A stretch of 64,000 nucleotides of DNA from Candidatus Moraniibacteriota bacterium. GTDB taxonomy: Bacteria > Patescibacteriota > Minisyncoccia > Moranbacterales > GCA-2747515. The DNA lies in contig CAMZLB010000031.1 in NCBI GenBank assembly GCA_947311515.1, positions 922 through 64,921 of the forward strand. Direction: 5' to 3'. The notes beneath the pieces are model-generated. The model was given only the letters and a program-made list of their open reading frames with translations, was not told where the DNA came from and did no database searches. Positions 1,039 through 51,817 of this stretch are shown here, one piece after another (within the stretch, counting starts at the first letter, position 1; each line of letters starts with the position of its first letter). Both the position numbers and the translations under genes were made by a program.

Positions 1039-1122
1039 ATTTAATTTTTCTGCTCTTTCCCTTAAACTTTCTACATTATTATTTTTTTGTTTTTCTTGAT
1101 TCACAAAATTATTTTTAATTTA

Positions 1123-1827
1123 CTAAGGCATAAATGGATTTTGTCTAGCCTGCACTTGAGCTTCTATATCTATAACTCTATTTACTTTATTTTTAATTTT
1201 TGTAATTTTTGCATAATCAACATCACCCAATATTTTCACATCATTTATATTTCCAACTGATGAACTAGTATTAAAATAATCAAATGACAATGTTAACATT
1301 AATTGATCTGATGTAGTTGTTTCTTTTTCTGAATTTACTTTCATTACTTCAATACTTCCTGCGGTAAATGCATAGAGCCTATTCATAATAAACACTCTTT
1401 CTATAAATTTATATATATTTTCATAAGTACCTGTAACTACCATACTACTTTCTACCTTTTCAATTTTTTTCAAATCTGATTCATCTTCTCTCTTTACTGT
1501 ATTTGTATTTTTGGAATTGAAACTTAGTGACGTTAGAGTGACACCACTTTCTATAGCATGTCTTGATATAATATTTATAAGCTTATCCTCTTCAACCTCT
1601 TTCGGAACAAAATTATTCAGAAATCCCTGTTCCGCTTTATGATTATTTGAATCGCTAATAAATTTTTTTAAAATAGCTAAATCTTTATTTAACTTTGCCT
1701 TTCTATCTTCTTGATTTTTGATCTCTTCCTTAAGTGATGCATTTTCTTTAAAAGTTGGCACAATGAACACAATAGTTGAATATATTGCTATTATTATAAC
1801 AAAAGGAAATAGAATAATTTTACTCAT
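1123..1827 (-). CDS. PilO-like pilus assembly protein (N-terminal TM plus coiled coil)
   Basis: 234 aa. N-terminal TM helix MSKIILFPFVIIIAIYSTIVFIV, followed by coiled-coil region. Sits between the PilN-like ORF and pilB in the same minus-strand operon. Confidence 0.4.
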   Translation of the reverse strand: MSKIILFPFVIIIAIYSTIVFIVPTFKENASLKEEIKNQEDRKAKLNKDLAILKKFISDSNNHKAEQGFLNNFVPKEVEEDKLINIISRHAIESGVTLTSLSFNSKNTNTVKREDESDLKKIEKVESSMVVTGTYENIYKFIERVFIMNRLYAFTAGSIEVMKVNSEKETTTSDQLMLTLSFDYFNTSSSVGNINDVKILGDVDYAKITKIKNKVNRVIDIEAQVQARQNPFMP

Positions 1828-5929: not shown

Positions 5930-6619
5930 TTATAAATGTTCTTTACTAATAATATTCCAAAGAATTGTATCTAAGTGTAATTCTGGGACATTTAATTTAA
6001 ATGAAATAGTTTTGTAAAAATCTTTAATATTTACTTTAGAATTTTTATTAAATTTTTTATATATTTTTATAAGTCTACTATCTATCGGAATCCCTAAAGA
6101 AGTTGGAAAAATTTCATTATAATTAAAAACATTTCTAGCGGAATAAGAAAACATTTTAACAGCAAAAACAATAGTTTTTGCATCTTTTTTTTGTTTCATT
6201 ACTTTTGATAGATCCAATGCAAAAATATCCATATTTTTATAGTAAAATTCGAATGCTTTATTATTTAACATAGAATAATTATCTATAAATTTATCTATTC
6301 TTTTAATTTTAATATTTACTAATCTTTTATTATTTTTAGAATTAGTTAAAAAAATAATCAAAACCTCTTTTACTTGCTGTAATGTATTCACATCCTTATC
6401 CTTTGTGTACTTATAAAATTCTTCCCAATAATCCTCACCATTTCCAGATAATTGATAACAAATAAGTGCATTTAAAATTACTAACTGAAAATATATTTTA
6501 TTTTTGAAGTTTTTTTCTTCGTATAATTTATTTACAGCTATAAATTGTCTATCAGATTTTTCAATTTTTAATATTTCGTTTAAAGAGTATTCTTTGAGAA
6601 TTTTATATAATTGTTCCAT
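5930..6619 (-). CDS. Possible AGOG-family N-glycosylase/DNA lyase-like protein (HhH)
   Basis: 229 aa, all-helical character. Candidate catalytic Lys (AVKMFSYSAR) about 27 aa before LGIPIDSRL (HhH-Asp-like). Assignment from memory, unverified. Confidence 0.3.
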   Translation of the reverse strand: MEQLYKILKEYSLNEILKIEKSDRQFIAVNKLYEEKNFKNKIYFQLVILNALICYQLSGNGEDYWEEFYKYTKDKDVNTLQQVKEVLIIFLTNSKNNKRLVNIKIKRIDKFIDNYSMLNNKAFEFYYKNMDIFALDLSKVMKQKKDAKTIVFAVKMFSYSARNVFNYNEIFPTSLGIPIDSRLIKIYKKFNKNSKVNIKDFYKTISFKLNVPELHLDTILWNIISKEHL

Positions 6620-6694: not shown

Positions 6695-8395
6695 ATGAAA
6701 TCAATAAGGCAAGTTTTACTTATTATCTTTGTTATAATTTTTCTACCCTATTATTCTTATGCACAAGAACGAATAATAAAATTTGATGTTGATATAACAA
6801 TGAATCCTAATTCAAATATAGATATAACAGAAACGATAAAGTACGACTTTTCTATACAAAAAAAACATGGAATATACAGAACTATTCCTGTTAAATACAA
6901 AACTGACTTAGGACTAAGAAGAAACCTAAAAATAAAAAATATTTCCGTAGTTGATGAAATGGGTAACTCCTATAATTTTAAAAAAATTAATGATGGTAAT
7001 AACATTAAAATACGTATAGGTGACGCCGATAAAACAATAACAGGAACTCATACTTATGAAATATCTTATACTATACTCGGTGCTATCAATTACTTTGACA
7101 ATCATGATGAGCTTTACTGGAACATTACTGGAAATAATTGGGATCTTCCAATTGATTCTGTGAGTGCAATGATTCATTCTTCCGGAATTGAAAAAATTGA
7201 ATGTTATAAAGGGACTGAAAATAGCAAGGAAACTTGTAATAAAAAGTTTTTTAATGAAACTTATGCAGATTTTAAAGATTTAGATTTTTCTCCTAATGAG
7301 GGAATGACAATTGTAGTAGGTATATCCAAAGGAATCATACAAGAAATGACTACTATTGAAAAAATATTGCAGTTTTTACTTAATAATTCACTCGAACTTC
7401 TATTTCCTATTGTTACAATTATTGCTCTATTTACTCACTGGTGGAAATTTGGACGAGACTTTAAATCTGACAAATCTATAGTTCCTACATGGGAAATTCC
7501 AAATAATTTACGACCTGGTGAACTTGGTATAATAATTGATGAAACTTTTGACTCAGAAGATTTTTCTTCCATTGTAATTGACTTAGCTGTGCGTGGCTAT
7601 ATCACTATAAAACAAATAAATACTAGTGTTTTATTTTTAAAATCATCCGACTATGAATTAACTTTATTAAAAAATAATTCTGATATATATTCAGATAATT
7701 CACTAGAACAATATGAGCGAGACTTCTTAGTAGCATTTTTTGGTAGTCAAAAAAAAGTCTTAATTTCGAGTAAAAAACAGAAATTTAGCAAAACATATCA
7801 AAAGTTAACATCACAAGTTTATGAAAAAATTAGTGGAAATTACTTCACAAAGAATCCTAAAAAAGTTGCTTTAAAGTATGGGTTTTATGGTATAATTTTT
7901 ATAGTTTTTATAAGTATAATTGGTAGTATATTCAATAATTTAATCCTGATAATAACTGGCTGGCTTGGAGGAACTTTTATAATCATAGGATATGGAAAAC
8001 TGATGATAAGAAGAACCCACAAGGGAACTGAAACAAGAGATCAAATAGAAGGACTTAGGATGTATCTCAAAACTGCCGAAAAAAGACAATTAGAATTCTT
8101 AAATGCCCCAGAAAAAAATGCAAAGCATTTTGAAGAAATGTTACCATATGCAGTAGCACTAGGCGTTACAAAAGAATGGGGAGAACAATTTAATGATTTA
8201 ATACAAAAAGAACCTAAATGGTTGAATAATGGCGCTAACGATTTTAATGCATCAACATTTGGCTCTGCTATGTATAATTTTACTAAATCAAGCTCTAGTT
8301 CCTTAAGTTCTTCCAAGGCTTCTAGTAGCGGAAGTGGCTTCTCTGGCGGTAGTTCAGGTGGAGGTTTTGGTGGTGGAGGTGGTGGTAGCTGGTAA
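6695..8395 (+). CDS. DUF2207-family membrane protein with Gly/Ser-rich C-terminal tail
   Basis: Signal/TM MKSIRQVLLIIFVIIFLPYYSYAQ. Large extracytoplasmic N-terminal domain, central TM helices. C-terminus SSSSLSSSKASSSGSGFSGGSSGGGFGGGGGGSW is typical of DUF2207. Confidence 0.55.
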   Translation: MKSIRQVLLIIFVIIFLPYYSYAQERIIKFDVDITMNPNSNIDITETIKYDFSIQKKHGIYRTIPVKYKTDLGLRRNLKIKNISVVDEMGNSYNFKKINDGNNIKIRIGDADKTITGTHTYEISYTILGAINYFDNHDELYWNITGNNWDLPIDSVSAMIHSSGIEKIECYKGTENSKETCNKKFFNETYADFKDLDFSPNEGMTIVVGISKGIIQEMTTIEKILQFLLNNSLELLFPIVTIIALFTHWWKFGRDFKSDKSIVPTWEIPNNLRPGELGIIIDETFDSEDFSSIVIDLAVRGYITIKQINTSVLFLKSSDYELTLLKNNSDIYSDNSLEQYERDFLVAFFGSQKKVLISSKKQKFSKTYQKLTSQVYEKISGNYFTKNPKKVALKYGFYGIIFIVFISIIGSIFNNLILIITGWLGGTFIIIGYGKLMIRRTHKGTETRDQIEGLRMYLKTAEKRQLEFLNAPEKNAKHFEEMLPYAVALGVTKEWGEQFNDLIQKEPKWLNNGANDFNASTFGSAMYNFTKSSSSSLSSSKASSSGSGFSGGSSGGGFGGGGGGSW

Positions 8396-8836
8396 TTATA
8401 ACTATTATTTTATAACATTACTACTATCAATTCATAACAATTTAGTTGTTAAATTTATTTAAAAGATTTTTAATGTTACTACTTAAAAAACATCATTTTT
8501 AACTTTATTATTAATAGAGTGCGGATAATGCTATGAAGATAAAATTATATTTTAAAAAATCACTCTAACAAGTTTTCAGAAAAAAACTTTTACAAAATTA
8601 ACTTTGAAAGAAACCAAGGATTCGCTATGGAAGTAAGACTTTCAACAAAAGGATTGAATATACTAGAAACATATATAAAAGTGTTTGTAATAAATAAAAA
8701 AAGTTATAAAAAAAGAAAAACATTACAAATCAACATTCTGCTAAATTTAAAATATAAAAAAAGTAAAATACAATCAATAAAAACACCTATACTGCAGGTG
8801 GCTATAATTTAATAGTTTGTGTAACTTATACTTTCG

Positions 8837-9145
8837 TTAATGTGGTAACATATCAATATTTCCTACATATATCGTAAACATACAACCCCCAAATAAAAGC
8901 AAAGGGATTCCTATGCTTCCTATCAAGAATCCAATTAGTATATATTTTGTATCTGCTCTATTATAGATAATTATAATCAAAAAAGGTATAGCTAACACAA
9001 TCAATATAGGAAGAAATAAAAATGATATCCAAAGTGGTATTGAAATTAGTATTCCTAATATTAGGTATTTACGTTTTTTGTACCTAAGATTTAAATCATT
9101 TGATTTATTATCTATATTTTTTCTATCTATCTCTTTATTTTTCAT
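8837..9145 (-). CDS. Small integral membrane protein (102 aa), last gene of the rSAM-MTase-lgt operon
   Basis: Basic N-terminus then 2-3 TM helices. 19 nt downstream of lgt. Confidence 0.3.
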   Translation of the reverse strand: MKNKEIDRKNIDNKSNDLNLRYKKRKYLILGILISIPLWISFLFLPILIVLAIPFLIIIIYNRADTKYILIGFLIGSIGIPLLLFGGCMFTIYVGNIDMLPH

Positions 9146-9164
9146 ACTTTTATTATAACATAAC

Positions 9165-9941
9165 TCAAGCTAAAAAACACTTTGCGATTCTTTTTTTTAT
9201 AAAAACAAAATATATAATTATACAAAAAGACAATAGTTGAAATAAGGTTAAATTAAAAAATATTCTTGGCTCAACTCTAATAAACTCAATAAAAAATCTA
9301 TAAGAAAAATAATATATCATGAACATATCAAATAATTCACCATCTTTTGAATTATTTCTCAGCTTTATATTAATAACAACAAACATTAATAATAAAAATA
9401 CTATTTCATAAATTTGTGTTGGATGTCTCGATACACCATCACCAAAATCAACTCCCCACGGCAATTTTGTTTGCACACCGTAACAACACCCCCTCAAATA
9501 ACATCCTACTCTACCTATACCTATGCCAGCAATTATTCCTGGTACAATATTATTACCCAATCTATATTTTATTCCAATTTTATTTTTAATATAAAAAACT
9601 GCCAAAGTTCCGCCAATTAAACCACCAACTATAGTACGTCCCGAAATAATTATCCCTATATTTCCTTGAAAATTATTAATAATTTCTGGAAAATAATAAA
9701 TCCAAATAGGAATCTTTGCACCAACTATACCACCCAAAATACCAAAAAGAACTATTTCAAATAAATATTCATGTTTATATTTATCTTTATTACGAGTGTA
9801 AAAAAAAGTTATTATTATTCCTAATATTATTCCAAGAGAAACAAAAAAAGCATATGATTGTACAGTATAACTTCCTATGTGAAAAAGTTCCGGTCTAATT
9901 CCCCACCCTTCAATGTGTTCGTGATTATGTAAATCAATCAT
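9165..9941 (-). CDS. lgt: Prolipoprotein diacylglyceryl transferase
   Basis: GRVGCYLRGCCYG, PWGVDFGDGVSRHPTQIYE (Lgt signature HPTQxYE). Polytopic membrane protein, 258 aa. Confidence 0.85.
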   Translation of the reverse strand: MIDLHNHEHIEGWGIRPELFHIGSYTVQSYAFFVSLGIILGIIITFFYTRNKDKYKHEYLFEIVLFGILGGIVGAKIPIWIYYFPEIINNFQGNIGIIISGRTIVGGLIGGTLAVFYIKNKIGIKYRLGNNIVPGIIAGIGIGRVGCYLRGCCYGVQTKLPWGVDFGDGVSRHPTQIYEIVFLLLMFVVINIKLRNNSKDGELFDMFMIYYFSYRFFIEFIRVEPRIFFNLTLFQLLSFCIIIYFVFIKKRIAKCFLA

Positions 9942-10531
9942 TTTTTATTAATTTTAATTAAATTAGGAAAAAACATACCAACTTCTTTTGTGTATTGATT
10001 ATAATCTTCAAAATTAACTTTTAAAAGTTTTTCTTCTTGTTTAGCTCTATAAAACATAAAAGGAATAAAAACTATAGTTGTTAATATAAATACCAAATAA
10101 TTTGAATATATCATACTAGAAGCATAAAACATCCATATAATTGAAGCGTATAAGGGATGCCTAACAATTTTATATGGACCTGTTGTTACTAAATTATGAT
10201 TTTTATATATTTTTATTTGATTTGCCCAATTTTTACCAAGATAATGTCTACCCCAAATATTAAACCACGTTCCAAAAACCATAAGTATCAATCCTATGAC
10301 TACCTGATATATTGTAGTATATTCAAAAGATCCTATTTTAAAACGTAAAAATAAATAAATCAAAATAAAAAATATAGTCATACTACCTGTTTCCACTATA
10401 CTACTTTTTTCTTTTTTGACTTTATTTTTATATTGAGAATAATCCATAAAATTAAATAGTATAGCCAAAAAAATAACAAAAATACAAAAACCAACGATAA
10501 AATTAATGATTATAACACTTTGTATTATCAT
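9938..10531 (-). CDS. ICMT/PEMT-family membrane methyltransferase (isoprenylcysteine carboxyl methyltransferase-like)
   Basis: LVTTGPYKIVRHPLYASII ... EEKLL...FEDYNQY matches the ICMT/phospholipid-methyltransferase C-terminal motif. 5-6 TM helices. ATGA 4-nt overlap with lgt. Confidence 0.65.
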   Translation of the reverse strand: MIIQSVIIINFIVGFCIFVIFLAILFNFMDYSQYKNKVKKEKSSIVETGSMTIFFILIYLFLRFKIGSFEYTTIYQVVIGLILMVFGTWFNIWGRHYLGKNWANQIKIYKNHNLVTTGPYKIVRHPLYASIIWMFYASSMIYSNYLVFILTTIVFIPFMFYRAKQEEKLLKVNFEDYNQYTKEVGMFFPNLIKINKK

Positions 10532-10535
10532 ATAA

Positions 10536-11918
10536 TTATAGTTTATCTCTATAAAACATATTATAAGTAGAAAATGGCATCTTTTTTAAATCTGGTGTGA
10601 TTATATGAACACAATCTTTTTTTACAGATTTAATATCAAAATTATAAACATCCACAAATGAAGTTACTGTAATTCTAAAAAAATTGTCATTTACATAATC
10701 GACTCTTTTTTGCTTTGATTGTAGTAATATCTTTGGATCAATGATAGATGCCATCTTTTTCATTGAATTCATGCATCCACCAGAACCCTTACAGCTAAAA
10801 ATTGGTTTAATTAAGTCCTTTGCTATATCCTCCATTGTAAATGTAAGTGTATTTTTTATGTTTGGTAAATAAGTTTCTATTTCTATATCATCCATAACAG
10901 ATTTCCATTTTCCTTCTTTAATTCTTTTAAAAAAAGAAATTGCAACCCTATCAATATCACAAGGCAATGGTATAAAATTATCAGTCTTTATCATTTTATT
11001 TGTTTGTTTTTCTATATCATTTAAAATACCTGTCAATGTTGAACGTTTCGTTATATTTTTTCTAGGCATTCTACCAAAAAAAGCAACTGGTTGAAAATTT
11101 ATACCACGAATCATTTTCTGATTCATTCCAAATTTTACTATCTCACCAACTTCATTATCATTAATACCATTTTCTATAGTAGCAACTAATGTTATAGGTA
11201 TATTGTATTTTGCTAAATTTTCAATAGCCTTATTTTTTATTTTCAACAAATCTCGTCCTCTAATTTTTTTTAAAACTTCCGCACTAAAACTATCAAACTG
11301 TAAATATATTTCAAAACCATTACTAAAGATATTAGATATTTTTTTTACAAATTCAATATCCTCTGCAAGTCTAATTCCATTTGTATTTAACATTACATAT
11401 TTAAATCCTTTTTTAGAAGCTAACTTTAGTATCTCTACTATTTGAGGATGAGTAGTTGGCTCTCCACCAGAAATTTGTAATATTTCAGCATTTCCATATT
11501 CAGAATCTATATAAAAATCCATCATTTCTTCTATTTTTTTTAAATCCAAAAAATCTCCTTCATTTGAATTAGCATAACACAAAGGACATCCTAAATCACA
11601 ATTATTGGTAACCTCAATTAAACCTATACATGTATGTTGTTCATGATCGGGACACAGCCCACAGTCAAATGGACATCCGTTTTTTATTTTTGTTTGCGTT
11701 TTACATTTTGTTCCTGGCTTATCATATTTTTTTCTATTTAAGTAATATTGTCCATCTTTTTCCAAAAGTTCTTTTTTTATACCATGCTTTAAACAATTTT
11801 TTAAAATAAAAACAGAACCATCTTCTAAAATAATTTTGGCATTTATTCGTTCTAAACACTTTTCACAAATACTAATCGTAGCTTCTATAAATAAATATTC
11901 CTTTTCATTCATAAACAT
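10536..11918 (-). CDS. Radical SAM enzyme with extra N- and C-terminal Cys-rich regions
   Basis: CDLGCPLCY (CX3CX2C). GGEP SAM motif (ILQISGGEPTT), LNTNG. N-terminal CEKC..C..C and GCPFDCGLCPDHEQHTC. C-terminal CKGSGGCMN. 460 aa. Confidence 0.8.
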   Translation of the reverse strand: MFMNEKEYLFIEATISICEKCLERINAKIILEDGSVFILKNCLKHGIKKELLEKDGQYYLNRKKYDKPGTKCKTQTKIKNGCPFDCGLCPDHEQHTCIGLIEVTNNCDLGCPLCYANSNEGDFLDLKKIEEMMDFYIDSEYGNAEILQISGGEPTTHPQIVEILKLASKKGFKYVMLNTNGIRLAEDIEFVKKISNIFSNGFEIYLQFDSFSAEVLKKIRGRDLLKIKNKAIENLAKYNIPITLVATIENGINDNEVGEIVKFGMNQKMIRGINFQPVAFFGRMPRKNITKRSTLTGILNDIEKQTNKMIKTDNFIPLPCDIDRVAISFFKRIKEGKWKSVMDDIEIETYLPNIKNTLTFTMEDIAKDLIKPIFSCKGSGGCMNSMKKMASIIDPKILLQSKQKRVDYVNDNFFRITVTSFVDVYNFDIKSVKKDCVHIITPDLKKMPFSTYNMFYRDKL

Positions 11919-11978: not shown

Positions 11979-13238
11979 TTACTTTAAATAATCCTTATCT
12001 CGTAATTCTATATGATAAGTTATTGCAAATCTATGAGCCTCTTCTCTTAACTTTTCTATCAACTTTAAATTTGTTTTTATGGATGACTTAATCGGAAATT
12101 TTCTCGACTCATACACATCCACTTTTTTTCTAGTTAATCCTTTTGCAACTGAAAGTAATCCAATTGTTACACCAGATAATCCAAAGTCATTCATCAATTT
12201 TTCTCCCATATTTAGATGCCCTTGACCACCATCCAAAATTATAGTATTTGGAACTCCCCAATCATCTAAATGATTAAATCTTCTAGCTAAAACTTCCCTC
12301 ATAGCCCCCACATCATCTATTCCAACTATATATTTAATTTTAAACTTTCTATATTTACTAGTATCAAGCTTACCTCCAATAGCTACAACCATAGAAGCTA
12401 CCATATATTCACCGTCAATATGAGATATATCATAACATTCTATTCGCTCTTTTAAAATATTAAAAGGATCTTCTTTTTTCAATAGAGCTATGTCATTTAT
12501 ATGCATTAGAGAATATAATTGTTTTTTTACTAAATTTGCTTTTTCAAATTCCTGTTTTTGTGCATAACTTTTCATTTCTCTTTCTAATTCCTTTATTATC
12601 TTCTTTTTATGACCTGTTAAAAATAAAGAGACATTTCTCATATTTTTCTTGTAATCCTTTTCAGTTATATTGTCATCATAAGGACCTGGACATAATCCTA
12701 TTTGATACGATAAGCATCCTTTTTCAGTTCTTTCACTTCGATTATGAAATGGAAAAATTTTTCTAATAATTTTTAGAGCAATTCTCATATTTTCAGTAGA
12801 TGTATAAGGTCCAAATTTTCTTCCTTCAATAATTTCTTTTGTTTTATTTTTTGTTTTTTGAAAATCTGTTTTCCTAAGAATCAAAACTCTTGGAAATTTT
12901 TCTTTTGTTATTAAAAAATATGAGTAAGTCTTATCATCTTTACCTTCTATATTAAATTTTGGTTGATATCTTTTTATGTATTCAGCTTCCAGTATAAGAG
13001 CTTCCAAAACACTATCTGTTTTGATAATTTCTAAATCAAATATTTTATCCACAAGTTTTTTCATTCTAGTGCCTCGACTTTTTTCTTCTTGTCCACTAAA
13101 ATATTGATTAACTCTATTTTTGAGAGATGTTGCCTTTCCTACGTATAAAATTTTATTTTCAAAAGATTTAAAAATATAAATTCCCGAAGTTTTGGGAAGA
13201 TTTCTTATCTTTTTCAAAACTTTTATTTCAACTTTCAT
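11979..13238 (-). CDS. uvrC: Excinuclease ABC subunit C, short form lacking C-terminal (HhH)2 domain
   Basis: GIY-YIG N-terminus (SGIYIFKSFENKILYVGKATSLKNRVNQYF). UVR-like FEKANLVKKQL. RNase-H-like endonuclease block ECYDISHIDGEYMVASMVVAIGGK...YRKFKIK. Ends right after that domain, 419 aa. Confidence 0.8.
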   Translation of the reverse strand: MKVEIKVLKKIRNLPKTSGIYIFKSFENKILYVGKATSLKNRVNQYFSGQEEKSRGTRMKKLVDKIFDLEIIKTDSVLEALILEAEYIKRYQPKFNIEGKDDKTYSYFLITKEKFPRVLILRKTDFQKTKNKTKEIIEGRKFGPYTSTENMRIALKIIRKIFPFHNRSERTEKGCLSYQIGLCPGPYDDNITEKDYKKNMRNVSLFLTGHKKKIIKELEREMKSYAQKQEFEKANLVKKQLYSLMHINDIALLKKEDPFNILKERIECYDISHIDGEYMVASMVVAIGGKLDTSKYRKFKIKYIVGIDDVGAMREVLARRFNHLDDWGVPNTIILDGGQGHLNMGEKLMNDFGLSGVTIGLLSVAKGLTRKKVDVYESRKFPIKSSIKTNLKLIEKLREEAHRFAITYHIELRDKDYLK

Positions 13239-47635: not shown

Positions 47636-50600
47636 CTAAAATATTTCAGAGCTTTTAACAATCTCCCAAATAGTTTTCCACCAATTCTCTCCAGTTTTAG
47701 CTAGTTTCTCTTCAGTATTGTTATAACCAAAGTCTGCTTTAGTATAATCCTGTCCTTCTCTTAAAGTCAATTTAATTTTATTGTTTAAATTACCACCTTT
47801 TTCATAGGTTTCTATAAAATGTCTCACATCATGTTTTTTTACAATAACTTTAAACTTACCTTTTGGAAGAATATCAAATTTATATTTACCATACTTATCG
47901 GTCTTTGTTTTCCAAATGTAATCATCATCAGTGCCAAATTTATTGTCTGGCCCAACCCAAATCAATTTAACATGAATATCTTCTAATCCTTTCTCATCTT
48001 TATCTTGTTTACCATCTCCGTCTTTGTCCAACCAAATGTAATTTCCGATGGAACTATCTCTCTCAGCTTTTTCTGTTCTATTCCATACTGTCTGATCTTC
48101 CCCGTTGATAGTATCATTATCCGTTACTACTGGTTCTTGTCCTCCAGTAATATCATCACTAAAATCTCCATCACCATTAGCATCCCAATGAGCACTAGCT
48201 TGATTTTCTACAGTTTTCATTTCAGCAGGAACAGTTGTCCTGTAAACCAAAACAACTTCATTTAAAGAATCATCTTCATTAGTCCCTCTTGGATCTGGAG
48301 CGATATCTCCTTCCCACCTCACCCTATTTTCCGCCACATCGTAGGTACAAACTGAAGTTACAGAAGCACCTCTTGCCTCACAAGTAAAACTATTTGCTAC
48401 GTAGGTCGTTCCAGCTGGAACATCATCGAGAATTTGTGTAGCAATAGCCGTCATATTTCCGTCGTTAATCCAAACCATTGTCCATTCTATTTCATTCTCT
48501 CCAGTTTCTCCAACAGTTTTTATAGCATGGGGTGGATCAAAAACATTAGCGTAAAGAGCATAAAATCCAGCATCTATAGATGTATTATTTTCTCCAGAAT
48601 GCAAATGTACAACATCCGTTGTTAATGTATTAATATTGATATCACTATCTTTTGTTGTGTCTCCACCTTGATTTTTATCAGTTGGATTATGATCTGCTGG
48701 TGGTGTAAATTGCACTTGATAATCGCCTGGCAAAAGATTTTCAAAAAGATAATCTCCATTTGAGCCAGTAGTTATAGTATAGGGTGTCCCAGGATTAGCT
48801 GGATCGTCAACTGGATTTCCTGCTCCATCCAATAATTCTACTAAAATACCTTCTAAGCCTGGTTCCCAATCTTGTTGAATACCATCCCTTTGATCATCTC
48901 GCCAAACTTTATCGCCAAGAGAAACCTGCTGCGATATACCTGCATCCAAAGAAGTTACTATGTCTCCAGAAGCCAATGTTACAACATCACTTCGCTTAGT
49001 CACAACATCTATATCAGAATCTATAGTGTCATCGCCTCCGACATTCTGTATTGAAACGCTATATCCATTTGGCAAATTTAATTCTATTTGATATTGCCCT
49101 GGCATTAAATGGATAAACTCATATTCACCATTGACTCCAGTGACTACCGTGTAAGGAGTGCCTGGATTATTTGGATTGTCCACTGGATTACCATCTCCGT
49201 CTAAAAGTTTTACTACTACTCCCTCTGCACCATTTTCTCCTGCATCCTGCAAACCATTAAGATTATCATCTAGCCAAATTTTATCTCCGATAGTAACTGT
49301 TTCATACATCCCCGTATCAATCGTATTATTATCCTCATTGACTTCCAAGCTAATAGTATCCGTCGTACCTACCTGTCCATTAATATTTGTTACATCTGAA
49401 TCAACAGCATCATCACCTCCTTGATTAGCTGGAGAATAAGAATGATTTGCTGAGGCAGTAAACCTTACACGATAATCTCCATGATTTAAACCTTCAAATA
49501 AATACCATCCATTAACATCTGTTGTTACTACATATGGTTGTCCATTTACTGGATTGTTCACAGGATTTCCTGCTCCATCTAATAATTCAACTTGCACTCC
49601 TTCCAATCCATTCTCGCCAGCATCCTGAATACCGTTAGCATTACTATCTGTCCATACTCTATTACCAATAGAACTGCCCACAATGCTAACCGCTTCTGAA
49701 TTAGACAATACGGGTAGAGTAACTCCTGTAGCCGAAGCACCTGCTGAATTAGAATAAATATCTCCGGACAAATTATTTTCTATTTTCATTTTCAATTGCA
49801 ATTGACACGTAGCGTCTGCCTCCATAGATGGACCTACTGCTCTCACAGCTGTTACATCACTTCGATTCATTCCAGATGGAGGATCAGTCATAGTTCCTTC
49901 TTGCCAAATTGTTTGTGCGCCACCAATAACGTTAGCTAGACCAACACTTGGCGCAATATTAATGTTAGTTGGCATCTCCGTTGTGTAATAGTATTTAACA
50001 CCCCCATTTACAGAAATATCACATAAAGCTGGTGATTCTGGATGGGCGACTAAAGACATAGAAGTAAATTCTTCAGTACCATGATAATTAGTTCCAGGAT
50101 TTCGTTCCACGGTAATATTATTAAAATGTATCGCCCCTGTATTTCCATCTCCTGTAAAAGGTAGAATATCAATCACATCTAAATCTGTTAAATCTCCTGG
50201 TTTTCCATTTCTAAAATCAACTAAATAATCAATGTCCTGACTAGCTACCGTACGTTCTCTTTGAGTAGCGCCCACTGTTGATTTAATAATATTTAAACTA
50301 GCTGGCACTGAGATATTTATTCCTACTTCTGATTGCGCTTGACTTACCACAGTAAAATCAGTTGAAACTTCTATAGTTGTAACATTATTAGCAATACCCA
50401 CCGGTGCTGAAGCTTTTACTTTTGCTTCATAAACAATATCTGAAAAATTACCGTTAGCACCTACTACCCCAAAATCCCATAACAAAACTGTATTTACGTT
50501 ATCATCACAGGTAAGTGAAACATCAACATCGTTACAAGTACCAATAACCGGCTCATTGGCTCCTGTTGTACTTCCATCAATATATTCAAATCCTTCCGGT

Positions 50601-51817
50601 AAAACATCTTTAATGACCAAATGCCCACTTTCAGCAAGACCAGCATCATTTGTATAAGTATAAGCTAAAGTATAAGAGACTGTATCACTAGGCACAGCTG
50701 TGGAGGTTGAAGCTGTCTTATTTATACGCGCTTTTGCCCCTGTAAATGTCACTCTATCTCCTCTTGTACCAATTATGGCATCTGGATATTGATTAGGAAT
50801 ATAATTTGTCCCAATAAAAGCATTGTTATTTATTTTATAAGCAAAACAATTAACAATTTCATCTCCATACTGTAGTGGTTGCCCGGTTAATAAATCATTT
50901 GTGCGCACCTTATGATTTAGCCACATAAATAAATAAGCTCCTGGCGGATGAACTACCCCATTGCGAAGTTTAATTTTTATTTTTGTCACCGAACCAATCC
51001 CTTGAGAGTCTGCTCTAGCCTCATCAGCTGTTGCAAACCACCCCCCTATTCCATTACATTCATTTTCAATTTCAGTTTTATATGAAACTGTTTGATCTCC
51101 ACCTCGTGAAGGAAGCCAAGAATTATCTACATAACGAGCCGAATATTCAAATTCATAAGGACCGGGGCTGGCACTATCGCTATAGTCACCGGAATCATGA
51201 CCTATATAATATTTTACTGGATCTGCATTGTTGTTATGAGCATAACCATTATAGCTTGTCTGTATACCAGTATAAAATTGATTGTCTTCAATATCTTGAA
51301 TTTCTAATCGATAAGCATCAATAACATCGCACATCTCCTCTGTAAAATCAGTTCCTCCTGTATTAGTAGAACGTATATTTGTAGAAAATTCATAACCACT
51401 ATTAACCATTCCTTCTCCCGTTCGAACACCCATAGCCCCTCCTGGCCAACTCCAAACACTCGAAGTGTCACCACGATAATATTTACCGAAAGATCCTCGT
51501 AAACCATACAAGGTTAGAGAATAGTCATTATCATTTTCTGATTCATGATTAGCTCCAAAATTTGAATTACCCGTTGGTGTAGTTGGGTCAAAACTTCTTA
51601 ATTTATTTTTTGTTAGCAATACTCCATCATCACTGTTTCCCGTAACACCATAATTTCCTGCTTCAACATCCGAAAGAGGTACAAAAACATTTACCGAACC
51701 AATAGCCGCTATTGCCCTACTGGCTGGCAAATCTCCTCCTGTATACATTTTTGTTGGATAATTATTTAAAGTAGCATCCACATGCGAAACTGTTACACCA
51801 ACATCAGTTCCGCTCAC
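47636..51817 (-). CDS. Giant cell-surface protein, C-terminal 1393-aa segment. Contains a DUF11-like domain, 3.5 SdrD-B/Cna-B-type repeats and a C-terminal LAKTG motif.
   Basis: Tandem about 120-aa units starting GNRVWTDSNANGIQDAGENG..., GDKIWLDDNLNGLQDAGENG..., GDKVWRDDQRDGIQ.... Partial fourth unit GNYIWLDKDGDGKQD. ...EEKLAKTGENWWKTIWEIVKSSEIF end. ORF begins at GTG directly after an in-frame TAA. Confidence 0.7.
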   Translation of the reverse strand: MSGTDVGVTVSHVDATLNNYPTKMYTGGDLPASRAIAAIGSVNVFVPLSDVEAGNYGVTGNSDDGVLLTKNKLRSFDPTTPTGNSNFGANHESENDNDYSLTLYGLRGSFGKYYRGDTSSVWSWPGGAMGVRTGEGMVNSGYEFSTNIRSTNTGGTDFTEEMCDVIDAYRLEIQDIEDNQFYTGIQTSYNGYAHNNNADPVKYYIGHDSGDYSDSASPGPYEFEYSARYVDNSWLPSRGGDQTVSYKTEIENECNGIGGWFATADEARADSQGIGSVTKIKIKLRNGVVHPPGAYLFMWLNHKVRTNDLLTGQPLQYGDEIVNCFAYKINNNAFIGTNYIPNQYPDAIIGTRGDRVTFTGAKARINKTASTSTAVPSDTVSYTLAYTYTNDAGLAESGHLVIKDVLPEGFEYIDGSTTGANEPVIGTCNDVDVSLTCDDNVNTVLLWDFGVVGANGNFSDIVYEAKVKASAPVGIANNVTTIEVSTDFTVVSQAQSEVGINISVPASLNIIKSTVGATQRERTVASQDIDYLVDFRNGKPGDLTDLDVIDILPFTGDGNTGAIHFNNITVERNPGTNYHGTEEFTSMSLVAHPESPALCDISVNGGVKYYYTTEMPTNINIAPSVGLANVIGGAQTIWQEGTMTDPPSGMNRSDVTAVRAVGPSMEADATCQLQLKMKIENNLSGDIYSNSAGASATGVTLPVLSNSEAVSIVGSSIGNRVWTDSNANGIQDAGENGLEGVQVELLDGAGNPVNNPVNGQPYVVTTDVNGWYLFEGLNHGDYRVRFTASANHSYSPANQGGDDAVDSDVTNINGQVGTTDTISLEVNEDNNTIDTGMYETVTIGDKIWLDDNLNGLQDAGENGAEGVVVKLLDGDGNPVDNPNNPGTPYTVVTGVNGEYEFIHLMPGQYQIELNLPNGYSVSIQNVGGDDTIDSDIDVVTKRSDVVTLASGDIVTSLDAGISQQVSLGDKVWRDDQRDGIQQDWEPGLEGILVELLDGAGNPVDDPANPGTPYTITTGSNGDYLFENLLPGDYQVQFTPPADHNPTDKNQGGDTTKDSDININTLTTDVVHLHSGENNTSIDAGFYALYANVFDPPHAIKTVGETGENEIEWTMVWINDGNMTAIATQILDDVPAGTTYVANSFTCEARGASVTSVCTYDVAENRVRWEGDIAPDPRGTNEDDSLNEVVLVYRTTVPAEMKTVENQASAHWDANGDGDFSDDITGGQEPVVTDNDTINGEDQTVWNRTEKAERDSSIGNYIWLDKDGDGKQDKDEKGLEDIHVKLIWVGPDNKFGTDDDYIWKTKTDKYGKYKFDILPKGKFKVIVKKHDVRHFIETYEKGGNLNNKIKLTLREGQDYTKADFGYNNTEEKLAKTGENWWKTIWEIVKSSEIF
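48840..49690 (-). repeat. Tandem about 360-bp coding repeats (SdrD-B-like domains) inside the giant surface protein
   Basis: Three successive units identifiable at DNA and protein level (about 49690, 49330, 48965). Units diverged, not identical. Confidence 0.6.

Follow-up and report, generated by a model that had tools for sequence, protein, structure and literature searches.

A conserved gene cassette of a GDGT-MAS-like radical SAM enzyme, an Lgt paralogue and small membrane proteins with a lipobox-like cysteine

The locus

The stretch of DNA analysed here (the window; 64,000 nucleotides) covers positions 922 to 64,921 of contig CAMZLB010000031.1, from a Candidatus Moraniibacteriota bacterium. 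Four closely spaced genes on its minus strand encode a radical S-adenosylmethionine (SAM) enzyme, called rSAM below, an integral-membrane methyltransferase of the isoprenylcysteine carboxyl methyltransferase (ICMT) family, a paralogue of the prolipoprotein diacylglyceryl transferase Lgt, which we call LgtL, and a small membrane protein (Table 1). As described below, these genes belong to a cassette that recurs across phyla and in which the small protein is the probable substrate.

A first-pass annotation of the sequence had described the four genes as a tightly coupled operon, and the coordinates of the open reading frames (ORFs) bear this out: there is a 4-nucleotide gap between the rSAM and ICMT genes, a 4-nucleotide overlap of the ATGA type between the ICMT and LgtL genes, and a 19-nucleotide gap before the last ORF. 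Judging from the sequence, the hairpin and T-run downstream are likely to mark the 3' end of the operon. The identical block of four genes, in equal order, is found in other public assemblies, where the ORF of 102 residues is annotated as a gene.

Table 1. Features of the window and of related loci named in the text. Gene spacings are from ORF coordinates.
Sequence	Feature	Positions	Strand	Remarks
Window	rSAM, 460 residues	10536..11918	-	GDGT-MAS/Tes-fold radical SAM enzyme
Window	ICMT/PEMT-family integral-membrane SAM methyltransferase, 197 residues	9938..10531	-	accessory of the type A cassette
Window	LgtL, Lgt-fold transferase paralogue, 258 residues	9165..9941	-	signature GRVGC147YLRGC152C153YG
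Window	small membrane protein, 102 residues	8837..9145	-	probable substrate; C-terminal module at residues 62-102
Window	L84-F-G-G-C88 codons, lipobox-like motif	8882..8896	-	Cys88 codon TGT = 8884-8882; direct sequence reading
Window	His102 codon	8840-8842		last residue of the small protein
Window	terminator-like hairpin, then TTTTT	8784..8800	-	37 nucleotides past the last stop codon
Window	rSAM/ICMT gap	10532-10535
Window	ICMT/LgtL overlap	9938-9941
Window	LgtL/small ORF gap	9146-9164
Window	UvrC	11979-13238	-	419 residues
Window	DUF2207 membrane protein	6695-8395	+	convergent with the cassette
Window	8-oxoguanine glycosylase/lyase (AGOG)	5930-6619	-	archaeal type
Window	surface-adhesin-like protein	47636-51817	-	1393 residues
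L001	DUF4395 protein	5988-6443
L083	DUF4395 protein	7010-7459
L086	DUF4395 protein	7939-8358
L090	paralogue of the small partner	1106-1552		upstream of the rSAM gene; Cys absent

The radical SAM enzyme

Pfam finds a Radical_SAM domain (81 bits) and a Zn_ribbon_HMPTM domain (51 bits) in the rSAM. The best-scoring curated family in NCBIfam is TrsS (NF045646), with 355 bits, and the alignment to this model runs end to end, pairing residues 13-454 with positions 2-431 of the 441 in the model. However, TrsS is a family of radical SAM (seleno)proteins with a cut-off of 490 bits, and the window enzyme has no selenocysteine. The Tes model (NF045702, cut-off 450) gives 315 bits to the window enzyme and 265-324 bits to its relatives. 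Since both cut-offs are missed, the rSAM belongs to neither family by the NCBI thresholds, and we found no NCBIfam model for the LgtL-linked rSAM clade or for the small proteins.

The sole close solved structure is that of GDGT-MAS from Methanocaldococcus jannaschii (MJ0619; PDB 7TOL, E=6e-79), to which the window enzyme is about 33% identical. The fold is shared over its full length: an AlphaFold2 model built from 22 sequences (predicted local distance difference test, pLDDT, 78.6) matches 7TOL and 7TOM with a template modelling (TM) score of 0.76-0.78 over about 490 columns, whereas other radical SAM structures reach at most 0.41. These matches place the rSAM in the Tes/GDGT-MAS clade of lipid-modifying enzymes and not in a tRNA- or rRNA-modifying family. 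It is predicted to be soluble.

The motifs that the first-pass annotation had read from the sequence (CX3CX2C, GGEP and additional N-terminal and C-terminal cysteines) are all present. The radical SAM cluster motif is C107x3C111x2C114, with GGEP at residues 151-154. The rubredoxin-type site, C18X2C21X20C42X2H45, has a spacing identical to that of GDGT-MAS (C9X2C12X20C33X2H36), and the N-terminal motif C82PFDC86GLC89PDH, that is C82/C86/C89 plus H92/H95, corresponds to the [4Fe-4S] site of GDGT-MAS on C73/C77/C80 and His (Lloyd 2022, PMC9433317). The cysteines of these three sites are invariant among the 74 relatives counted, as are H45, H92 and H95 in the alignment of 22 sequences.

Besides the radical SAM cluster, GDGT-MAS has a C-terminal cluster with a labile Met439; Met439 and Tyr459 show complete conservation in 1000 archaeal homologues, and the enzyme made in Escherichia coli binds bacterial phospholipids (Lloyd 2022, PMC9433317). 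The C-terminal domain of the window rSAM also bears cysteines, and the putative cluster ligands are C320, C376/C383 (C376x6C383) and C436. Cys320 is invariant among the relatives and has Ser as its equivalent in GDGT-MAS. Cys436 is shared, and the pair found at 376/383 in the window enzyme is located at 391-392 in the majority of other relatives. On the other hand, Cys438-Met439 of GDGT-MAS is replaced by Val418-Thr419, and Tyr459 by Ile439. To judge from these alignments, the architecture of GDGT-MAS and all four cofactor sites, one of the rubredoxin type and three [4Fe-4S], are probably retained, and the ligand set is changed in the very cluster that holds the lipid radical intermediate in GDGT-MAS.

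We rejected an identity as a pterin methylase (HMPTM), a name that traces to MJ0619. That protein has been shown to be GDGT-MAS, and the pterin activity was not reproducible (Lloyd 2022, PMC9433317).

The Lgt paralogue

LgtL matches the Pfam family LGT (PF01790) with 141 bits, against a cut-off of 24.9. On the other hand, it stays under every NCBIfam cut-off for Lgt; for example, it scores 73.8 bits with TIGR00544 (cut-off 118.9), and a member from Paenibacillus scores 56.5. In a search with its AlphaFold2 model (pLDDT 81.9), E. coli Lgt (5AZB) is the sole fold match in the PDB at E <= 0.001, with a TM score of 0.67.

Residue counts were taken from an alignment of E. coli Lgt, whose numbering is used here, and 62 rSAM-linked relatives. 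The invariant residues are G142, R143, G145, G150, G154, P197, Y235 and R239; E202 is present in 60 of the 62 sequences. Among these are R143 and R239, which are cited as essential in Lgt (Hong 2025; Legood 2026). Unlike in Lgt, Asn146 is replaced by Cys in every member (62/62), Glu151 by L, C, I or V, and His103 by V, L, M or I, so that the Lgt signature GRxGNFxNxExxG (with N146 and E151) and H103 are not found in LgtL.

Public records call LgtL a 'prolipoprotein diacylglyceryl transferase', and the first-pass annotation likewise took it for the first enzyme of lipoprotein maturation. This assignment has to be withdrawn because of the N146C replacement, the loss of E151 and H103 and the scores under the Lgt cut-offs. 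As far as can be read from sequence, LgtL is a distinct subfamily of Lgt paralogues and not a canonical Lgt. Two copies of lgt have been reported in about 1,300 RefSeq genomes, in a paper that does not mention a radical SAM partner (Legood 2026).

Conservation and subtypes of the cassette

A scan of one genome per species confirmed at least 594 relatives of the rSAM, and the carrier species therefore number at least several hundred. We examined linkage in the best 80 of these rSAM loci, where LgtL was sought by tblastn with the window proteins. It is found in 73 of the 80 loci, or in 73 of the 76 informative ones, since in four of the seven loci without LgtL the contig ends just past the rSAM or ICMT gene. 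Starting in reverse from LgtL matches on long contigs, we recovered the same cassette in 3/3 cases. Furthermore, the pairwise identities of rSAM and of LgtL are correlated (r = 0.89, 59 loci; Mantel p <= 0.001).

The linkage extends across at least ten phyla. Carriers are found among bacteria of the candidate phyla radiation (CPR), in metagenome-assembled genomes (MAGs) of Woesearchaeota and Pacearchaeota (DPANN), and in Clostridia, Elusimicrobia, Verrucomicrobiota, Acidobacteriota (L015 Holophaga, L073 Bryobacterales), Planctomycetota and Cyanobacteria. Many are cultured Bacillales (Paenibacillus, Heyndrickxia, Neobacillus, Brevibacillus) or Bacteroidota (Mucilaginibacter, Pedobacter, Flavobacterium, Aquimarina). 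Apart from the cassette genes, the neighbourhood is not conserved; the remaining neighbour clusters (ABC transporters, peptidases, leucyl-tRNA synthetase) reflect lineage-specific synteny. The first-pass annotation had proposed a lipid or lipoprotein tailoring module that is not known from model bacteria. Because the rSAM lies in a lipid-modifying clade and the linkage is conserved, this is a fair summary and points in the right direction; it is in the details of Lgt, ICMT and the small ORF that it has to be changed.

The loci fall into two subtypes, between which the gene order, the motif of LgtL, the place of the Cys pair in the rSAM and the presence of ICMT change together. In type A (11 loci including the window) the order is rSAM-ICMT-(DUF4395)-LgtL-small protein(s), the LgtL signature is GRxGCxxxGCCxG with three invariant cysteines (GCxxxGCC), and the rSAM Cys pair lies near residue 380. 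In type B (46 loci) the order is LgtL-rSAM-small protein(s), ICMT is absent, the LgtL signature is GRxGCFxxGx[x][DE]xT[YHF], without the GCC pair, and the rSAM has an LLCCLP motif at 391-392. The split is nearly clean: two loci lie outside both subtypes, and one locus resembling type A has no clustered ICMT ORF. The type A layout is kept in close CPR relatives (75% and 58% rSAM identity), in a locus of Gracilibacteria (genetic code 25), in the cultured Mangrovibacterium marinum and in another genome, of 3.7 Mb.

Two observations concern loci labelled as archaeal. Genes with the Lgt fold (PF01790) occur in MAGs labelled Woesearchaeota, Pacearchaeota and Nanoarchaeota (L002, L007, L009), whereas Lgt has been reported as absent from archaea (Legood 2026) and an archaeal homologue as not known (Hong 2025); these loci may be mis-binned CPR contigs. 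The second is L006 (contig CAZKZU010000001.1), a type A cassette whose label, 'uncultured Methanosarcinales archaeon', looks doubtful. The nearest relatives of its rSAM are CPR- and DPANN-type proteins (69-75% identity), and there are no Methanosarcina proteins among its best 120 matches. A link of the clade to MA_1114 of Methanosarcina acetivorans, for which we searched with this rSAM, was not established. MA_1114 is a Tes paralogue that gave no GDGT (Zeng 2022, PMC8941075).

The ICMT-family enzyme and DUF4395

The ORF of 197 residues matches the Pfam families ICMT (PF04140; 59 bits, cut-off 24) and PEMT (53 bits). With the NCBIfam model of isoprenylcysteine O-methyltransferase it scores 80 bits, under the cut-off of 160. 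It matches the structure of the M. acetivorans ICMT (PDB 4A2N) with E=4e-13, and the SAM-binding RHPxY and EE motifs align as VRHPLYA/IRHPMYA and KQEEKLL/PKEEELL. An ICMT-family enzyme is thus encoded in the operon, as the first-pass annotation had noted. Its coupling to the other genes is not general, since the ICMT gene is confined to loci with the order rSAM before LgtL, that is to type A.

Between ICMT and LgtL, most type A cassettes have a gene for a membrane protein of the DUF4395 family whose C-terminal tail reads CxxxxxxCC (examples in Table 1). The window lacks it, as do L081, L085 and L091. Neither ICMT nor DUF4395 belongs to the conserved core; both are accessories in a single subtype. 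The three invariant cysteines of type A LgtL hint at a thiol or metal relay.

Small proteins and their Cys module

The first-pass annotation had treated the ORF of 102 residues as a bystander. It has no family match in Pfam, and a phmmer search of 1.84 billion representative sequences returned only the protein itself. Since the window protein has no sequence homologues, its class can be recognised only by gene context and motif. Almost every locus has one to six small ORFs (60-160 residues) on the same strand after the last enzyme gene, often in tandem, and these fall into at least 13 sequence clusters without detectable similarity between lineages.

Despite this divergence, the ending of these proteins is nearly universal: a segment rich in Lys and Arg, then 15-22 uncharged residues (median 18), a small residue followed by Cys (G-x-C-like), and a tail of 3-14 residues (median 8). 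In the window protein the module consists of NRADTK, 20 uncharged residues, LLLFGGC88 and a tail of 14 residues ending in His (MFTIYVGNIDMLPH). For example, the motif reads LIGFSTC in Mucilaginibacter, FLVNAACFG in Paenibacillus and GLGICG in Flavobacteriia; in type A loci we see LLAFGAC and LLFMGSC, and in CPR relatives LLIFGGC, LVLGGGC, LLVFGGC, FLIFGGC and LILGGC. The type A small proteins have a longer module in common, [KR][KR]Y[IL]xIG..S..P[LF]L[LV]FG[SAG]C. L007 and L009, both DPANN loci, have a motif of this kind (LVFVGAC) in an N-terminal helix resembling a signal peptide, in five or six tandem genes.

Expressed as a formal motif, the module occurs in 69 of 98 cassette-adjacent small ORFs and in 14 of the 246 remaining small ORFs of these loci (Fisher p = 8e-35); of the 14, at least 10 are cassette-adjacent copies missed by our crude adjacency rule. 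Loci fetched later served as an independent check, and there the motif is present in 8/8 loci and in 12 of 13 adjacent small ORFs.

Ahead of the last helix the density of Lys and Arg is 0.26 per residue, compared with 0.05 behind the Cys, a 5.5-fold difference. Because of this asymmetry, the positive-inside rule predicts that the last helix runs from N-in to C-out and that the Cys lies at its outer end. By analogy, the predicted geometry of helix and Cys is that of a lipoprotein signal peptide offered to Lgt. As this lipobox-like module recurs in unrelated small proteins at almost all loci, the protein of 102 residues is a probable substrate rather than a bystander.

Two side observations can be added. 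A C-terminal His is found in 15 of 69 small partner proteins, whereas among the ORFs of the loci as a whole the share is 4% (p = 2e-7); the window protein (...DMLPH) and proteins of 13 other loci have it. In L090, a paralogue of the small partner, perhaps a degenerate copy, lies upstream of the rSAM gene; it has kept the conserved C-terminal helix and has no Cys (…ILPPLLFFLAGLII…).

Proposed function

We propose that the small protein is the substrate of LgtL and that the rSAM tailors the lipid, which would make the cassette an undescribed route of protein-lipid attachment and tailoring. We hold this with moderate confidence. It starts from the enzyme families and folds, the conserved active sites, the linkage across phyla, the co-divergence of rSAM and LgtL and the substrate-like motif. 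An enzyme with the Lgt fold and its phosphate-binding arginines adjoins unrelated proteins with a lipobox-like Cys, and the simplest account of this is that LgtL uses the small proteins as substrates. The co-inheritance of LgtL with an rSAM of the type that couples lipid tails also underlies this account.

The following steps can be envisaged. The small protein would insert into the membrane with its last helix N-in to C-out and its Cys at the outer end of this helix. LgtL, acting like Lgt, would move a diacylglyceryl-type lipid from a glycerophospholipid to the Cys thiol. The rSAM, before or after this transfer, would abstract a hydrogen from an alkyl-chain carbon, and its C-terminal cluster would then form a C-C bond, possibly a C-S bond, so that the tails of the protein-bound lipid might be cross-linked within one lipid or to a second one. 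The coupling of alkyl termini through a C-C bond is suggested by analogy with GDGT-MAS. Cassettes of type A, to which the window locus belongs, have the ICMT-family enzyme, which may methylate a carboxylate, phosphate or thiol of the product; DUF4395, where present, would be a further accessory. In its most specific form, the proposal is that an Lgt paralogue puts a glycerolipid on a Cys in the C-terminal helix of dedicated small membrane proteins and that a Tes-like rSAM staples the tails, leaving a protein bound covalently to a macrocyclic or membrane-spanning lipid, in a system that is widespread in bacteria and also occurs in DPANN archaea. This form is tentative, and we consider it possible rather than probable.

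Several points weigh against this account. The main difficulty is topological: the active sites of rSAM and ICMT need cytoplasmic SAM, whereas the Cys is predicted at the outer face. Asn146, replaced by Cys in LgtL, is a residue that published mutagenesis reports as required in E. coli Lgt, and LgtL could therefore catalyse a different chemistry. Similarly, the rSAM has Cys320 in place of Cys438, Met439 and Tyr459, and its reaction may therefore differ from tail-to-tail coupling. Taken together, the altered ligands of the C-terminal cluster and N146C mean that both enzymes may depart from the chemistry of their characterised relatives. The cassette encodes no signal peptidase or other protease, and three loci (L062, L067, L068) have an rSAM and small proteins with no LgtL within 6 kb. 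The formal motif was set after inspection of the same sequences to which it was applied. Finally, all chemical steps, as well as the physiological role, are what we infer from these observations.

Comparison with known systems

Compared with GDGT-MAS and Tes, the clade of the window rSAM is mostly bacterial and is tied to an Lgt paralogue and Cys-bearing small proteins. The comparison with Lgt extends to the substrates, since the cassette partners, too, have a basic segment followed by an uncharged helix with a Cys at its end; however, with the exception of the DPANN loci, the putative recognition module is C-terminal in small polytopic proteins and not an N-terminal signal peptide. Eukaryotic CaaX processing is similar in that an enzyme for thioether-type lipidation and an ICMT-family methyltransferase are encoded together in the cassette and in that 3-14 residues separate the target Cys from the C-terminus. 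On the other hand, the transferase is Lgt-like and not a prenyltransferase, no CaaX protease is encoded, the C-terminus is predicted to be extracytoplasmic whereas ICMT acts at the cytoplasmic face, and the larger subtype, type B, has no ICMT.

In the literature compared, which did not include the TrsS description of Haft and Tolstoy (2025), we found nothing that links Lgt or a diacylglyceryl transferase with radical SAM enzymes or tetraethers. A BLAST search identified 456 bacterial Tes homologues, which were proposed to act in making brGDGTs (branched glycerol dialkyl glycerol tetraethers), and homologues in DPANN were called 'unexpected' (Zeng 2022, PMC8941075). A survey from 2025 counted Tes matches in bacterial MAGs by the same approach, and a review of lipid-modifying radical SAM enzymes from 2026 does not mention Lgt or lipoproteins. 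The combination of LgtL with a Tes-like rSAM and with small membrane proteins that have a lipobox-like tail is apparently undescribed.

Alternative explanations

Potentially, the cassette could serve free lipids. The rSAM would then be a bacterial synthase of tetraethers or other membrane-spanning lipids acting on ordinary phospholipids, and LgtL and the small proteins would assist, either in lipid delivery or by anchoring the soluble rSAM at the membrane. The full-length GDGT-MAS fold and cofactor motifs fit this, as do the brGDGT role proposed for bacterial Tes homologues (Zeng 2022, PMC8941075) and the two Acidobacteria among the carriers. However, the hallmarks of Tes, Met439 and Tyr459, are missing and its cut-off is not reached, and among the carriers are members of CPR and DPANN, which are said to lack genes for lipid biosynthesis (Zeng 2022, PMC8941075). 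The signal-peptide-like helix and Cys of unrelated small proteins next to an Lgt-fold enzyme would also be left unexplained. We find this explanation doubtful.

Instead of being substrates, the small proteins could be structural subunits, that is, anchors or regulators of an LgtL-rSAM complex, and their conserved Cys would then bind a metal or cluster or be joined by a disulfide to Cys146 of LgtL. A soluble rSAM, as predicted, would need a membrane dock, and partner cysteines are at hand: Cys146 is invariant, type A LgtL has three such residues, and the tail of DUF4395 is rich in them. This is unlikely, since tandem arrays of up to five or six divergent copies (L009, L023) fit substrates better than stoichiometric subunits and since, by the charge asymmetry, the Cys would be on the outer side of the membrane, remote from an rSAM in the cytoplasm.

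If the small genes, multi-copy and hypervariable, are compared with precursors of ribosomally synthesized and post-translationally modified peptides, one may also think of a ribosomal lipopeptide. The lipidated precursor would be cut ahead of the Cys in the manner of signal peptidase II and release a lipopeptide of 4-15 residues; the module does mimic a lipoprotein signal peptide, in which cleavage falls just ahead of the Cys. Against this, we found no conserved protease, exporter or immunity gene in the cassette among the loci, and the tails are short, hydrophobic and, except for the frequent terminal His, unconserved, which makes a lipopeptide very unlikely.

That a housekeeping Lgt and a pterin methylase lie together by chance, as the public names 'prolipoprotein diacylglyceryl transferase' and '7,8-dihydro-6-hydroxymethylpterin dimethyltransferase' (HMPTM, as in JGI annotations) would have it, is hardly credible and is contradicted by the conservation data: the linkage spans at least ten phyla, rSAM and LgtL diverge together, residue 146 is Cys in all 62 sequences, the Lgt equivalog cut-offs are missed, and the HMPTM name itself comes from GDGT-MAS.

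Other genes in the window

The window has a bacterial gene content (for example PolA, NusA, trigger factor and MurE) at about 28% G+C, and the named best matches are lineages of Patescibacteria (CPR). We found no second Lgt, no LspA and no DUF4395 in its 64 kb. A promoter scan of this AT-rich DNA was uninformative, with 42 sites against 31 expected.

Upstream of the cassette, uvrC ends 60 nucleotides ahead of the rSAM start. Its product is short and has GIY-YIG, UVR and RNase H-like domains; the C-terminal helix-hairpin-helix region is apparently missing. The first gene downstream is read from the other strand, towards the cassette; it encodes a DUF2207 membrane protein with a long tail rich in Ser and Gly (...SSSSSLSSSKASSSGSGFSGGSSGGGFGGGGGGSW). 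Beyond it lies a gene for an archaeal-type 8-oxoguanine glycosylase/lyase (AGOG, Pfam 185 bits) amid otherwise bacterial, CPR-like genes. The surface-adhesin-like protein has SdrC/SdrD-type and DUF11 repeats, and its gene is the only G+C-rich stretch of the window (37-39%, versus 25-32% elsewhere).

Significance

Several carriers are cultivable (Paenibacillus, Heyndrickxia, Mucilaginibacter, Pedobacter, Flavobacterium, Mangrovibacterium), and the proposal that LgtL lipidates the small proteins is therefore directly testable. If it is true, many of the 'bacterial Tes homologues' that have been counted as candidate brGDGT synthases do something else, and a large clade of Tes-like enzymes tied to LgtL would change how BLAST-based surveys of brGDGT producers are read. 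Lgt-type chemistry would then reach C-terminal targets, and PF01790 genes would be placed in archaeal MAGs, where Lgt has been reported absent. For those CPR and DPANN organisms that depend on host lipids, the cassette would point to a conserved handling of scavenged lipid.

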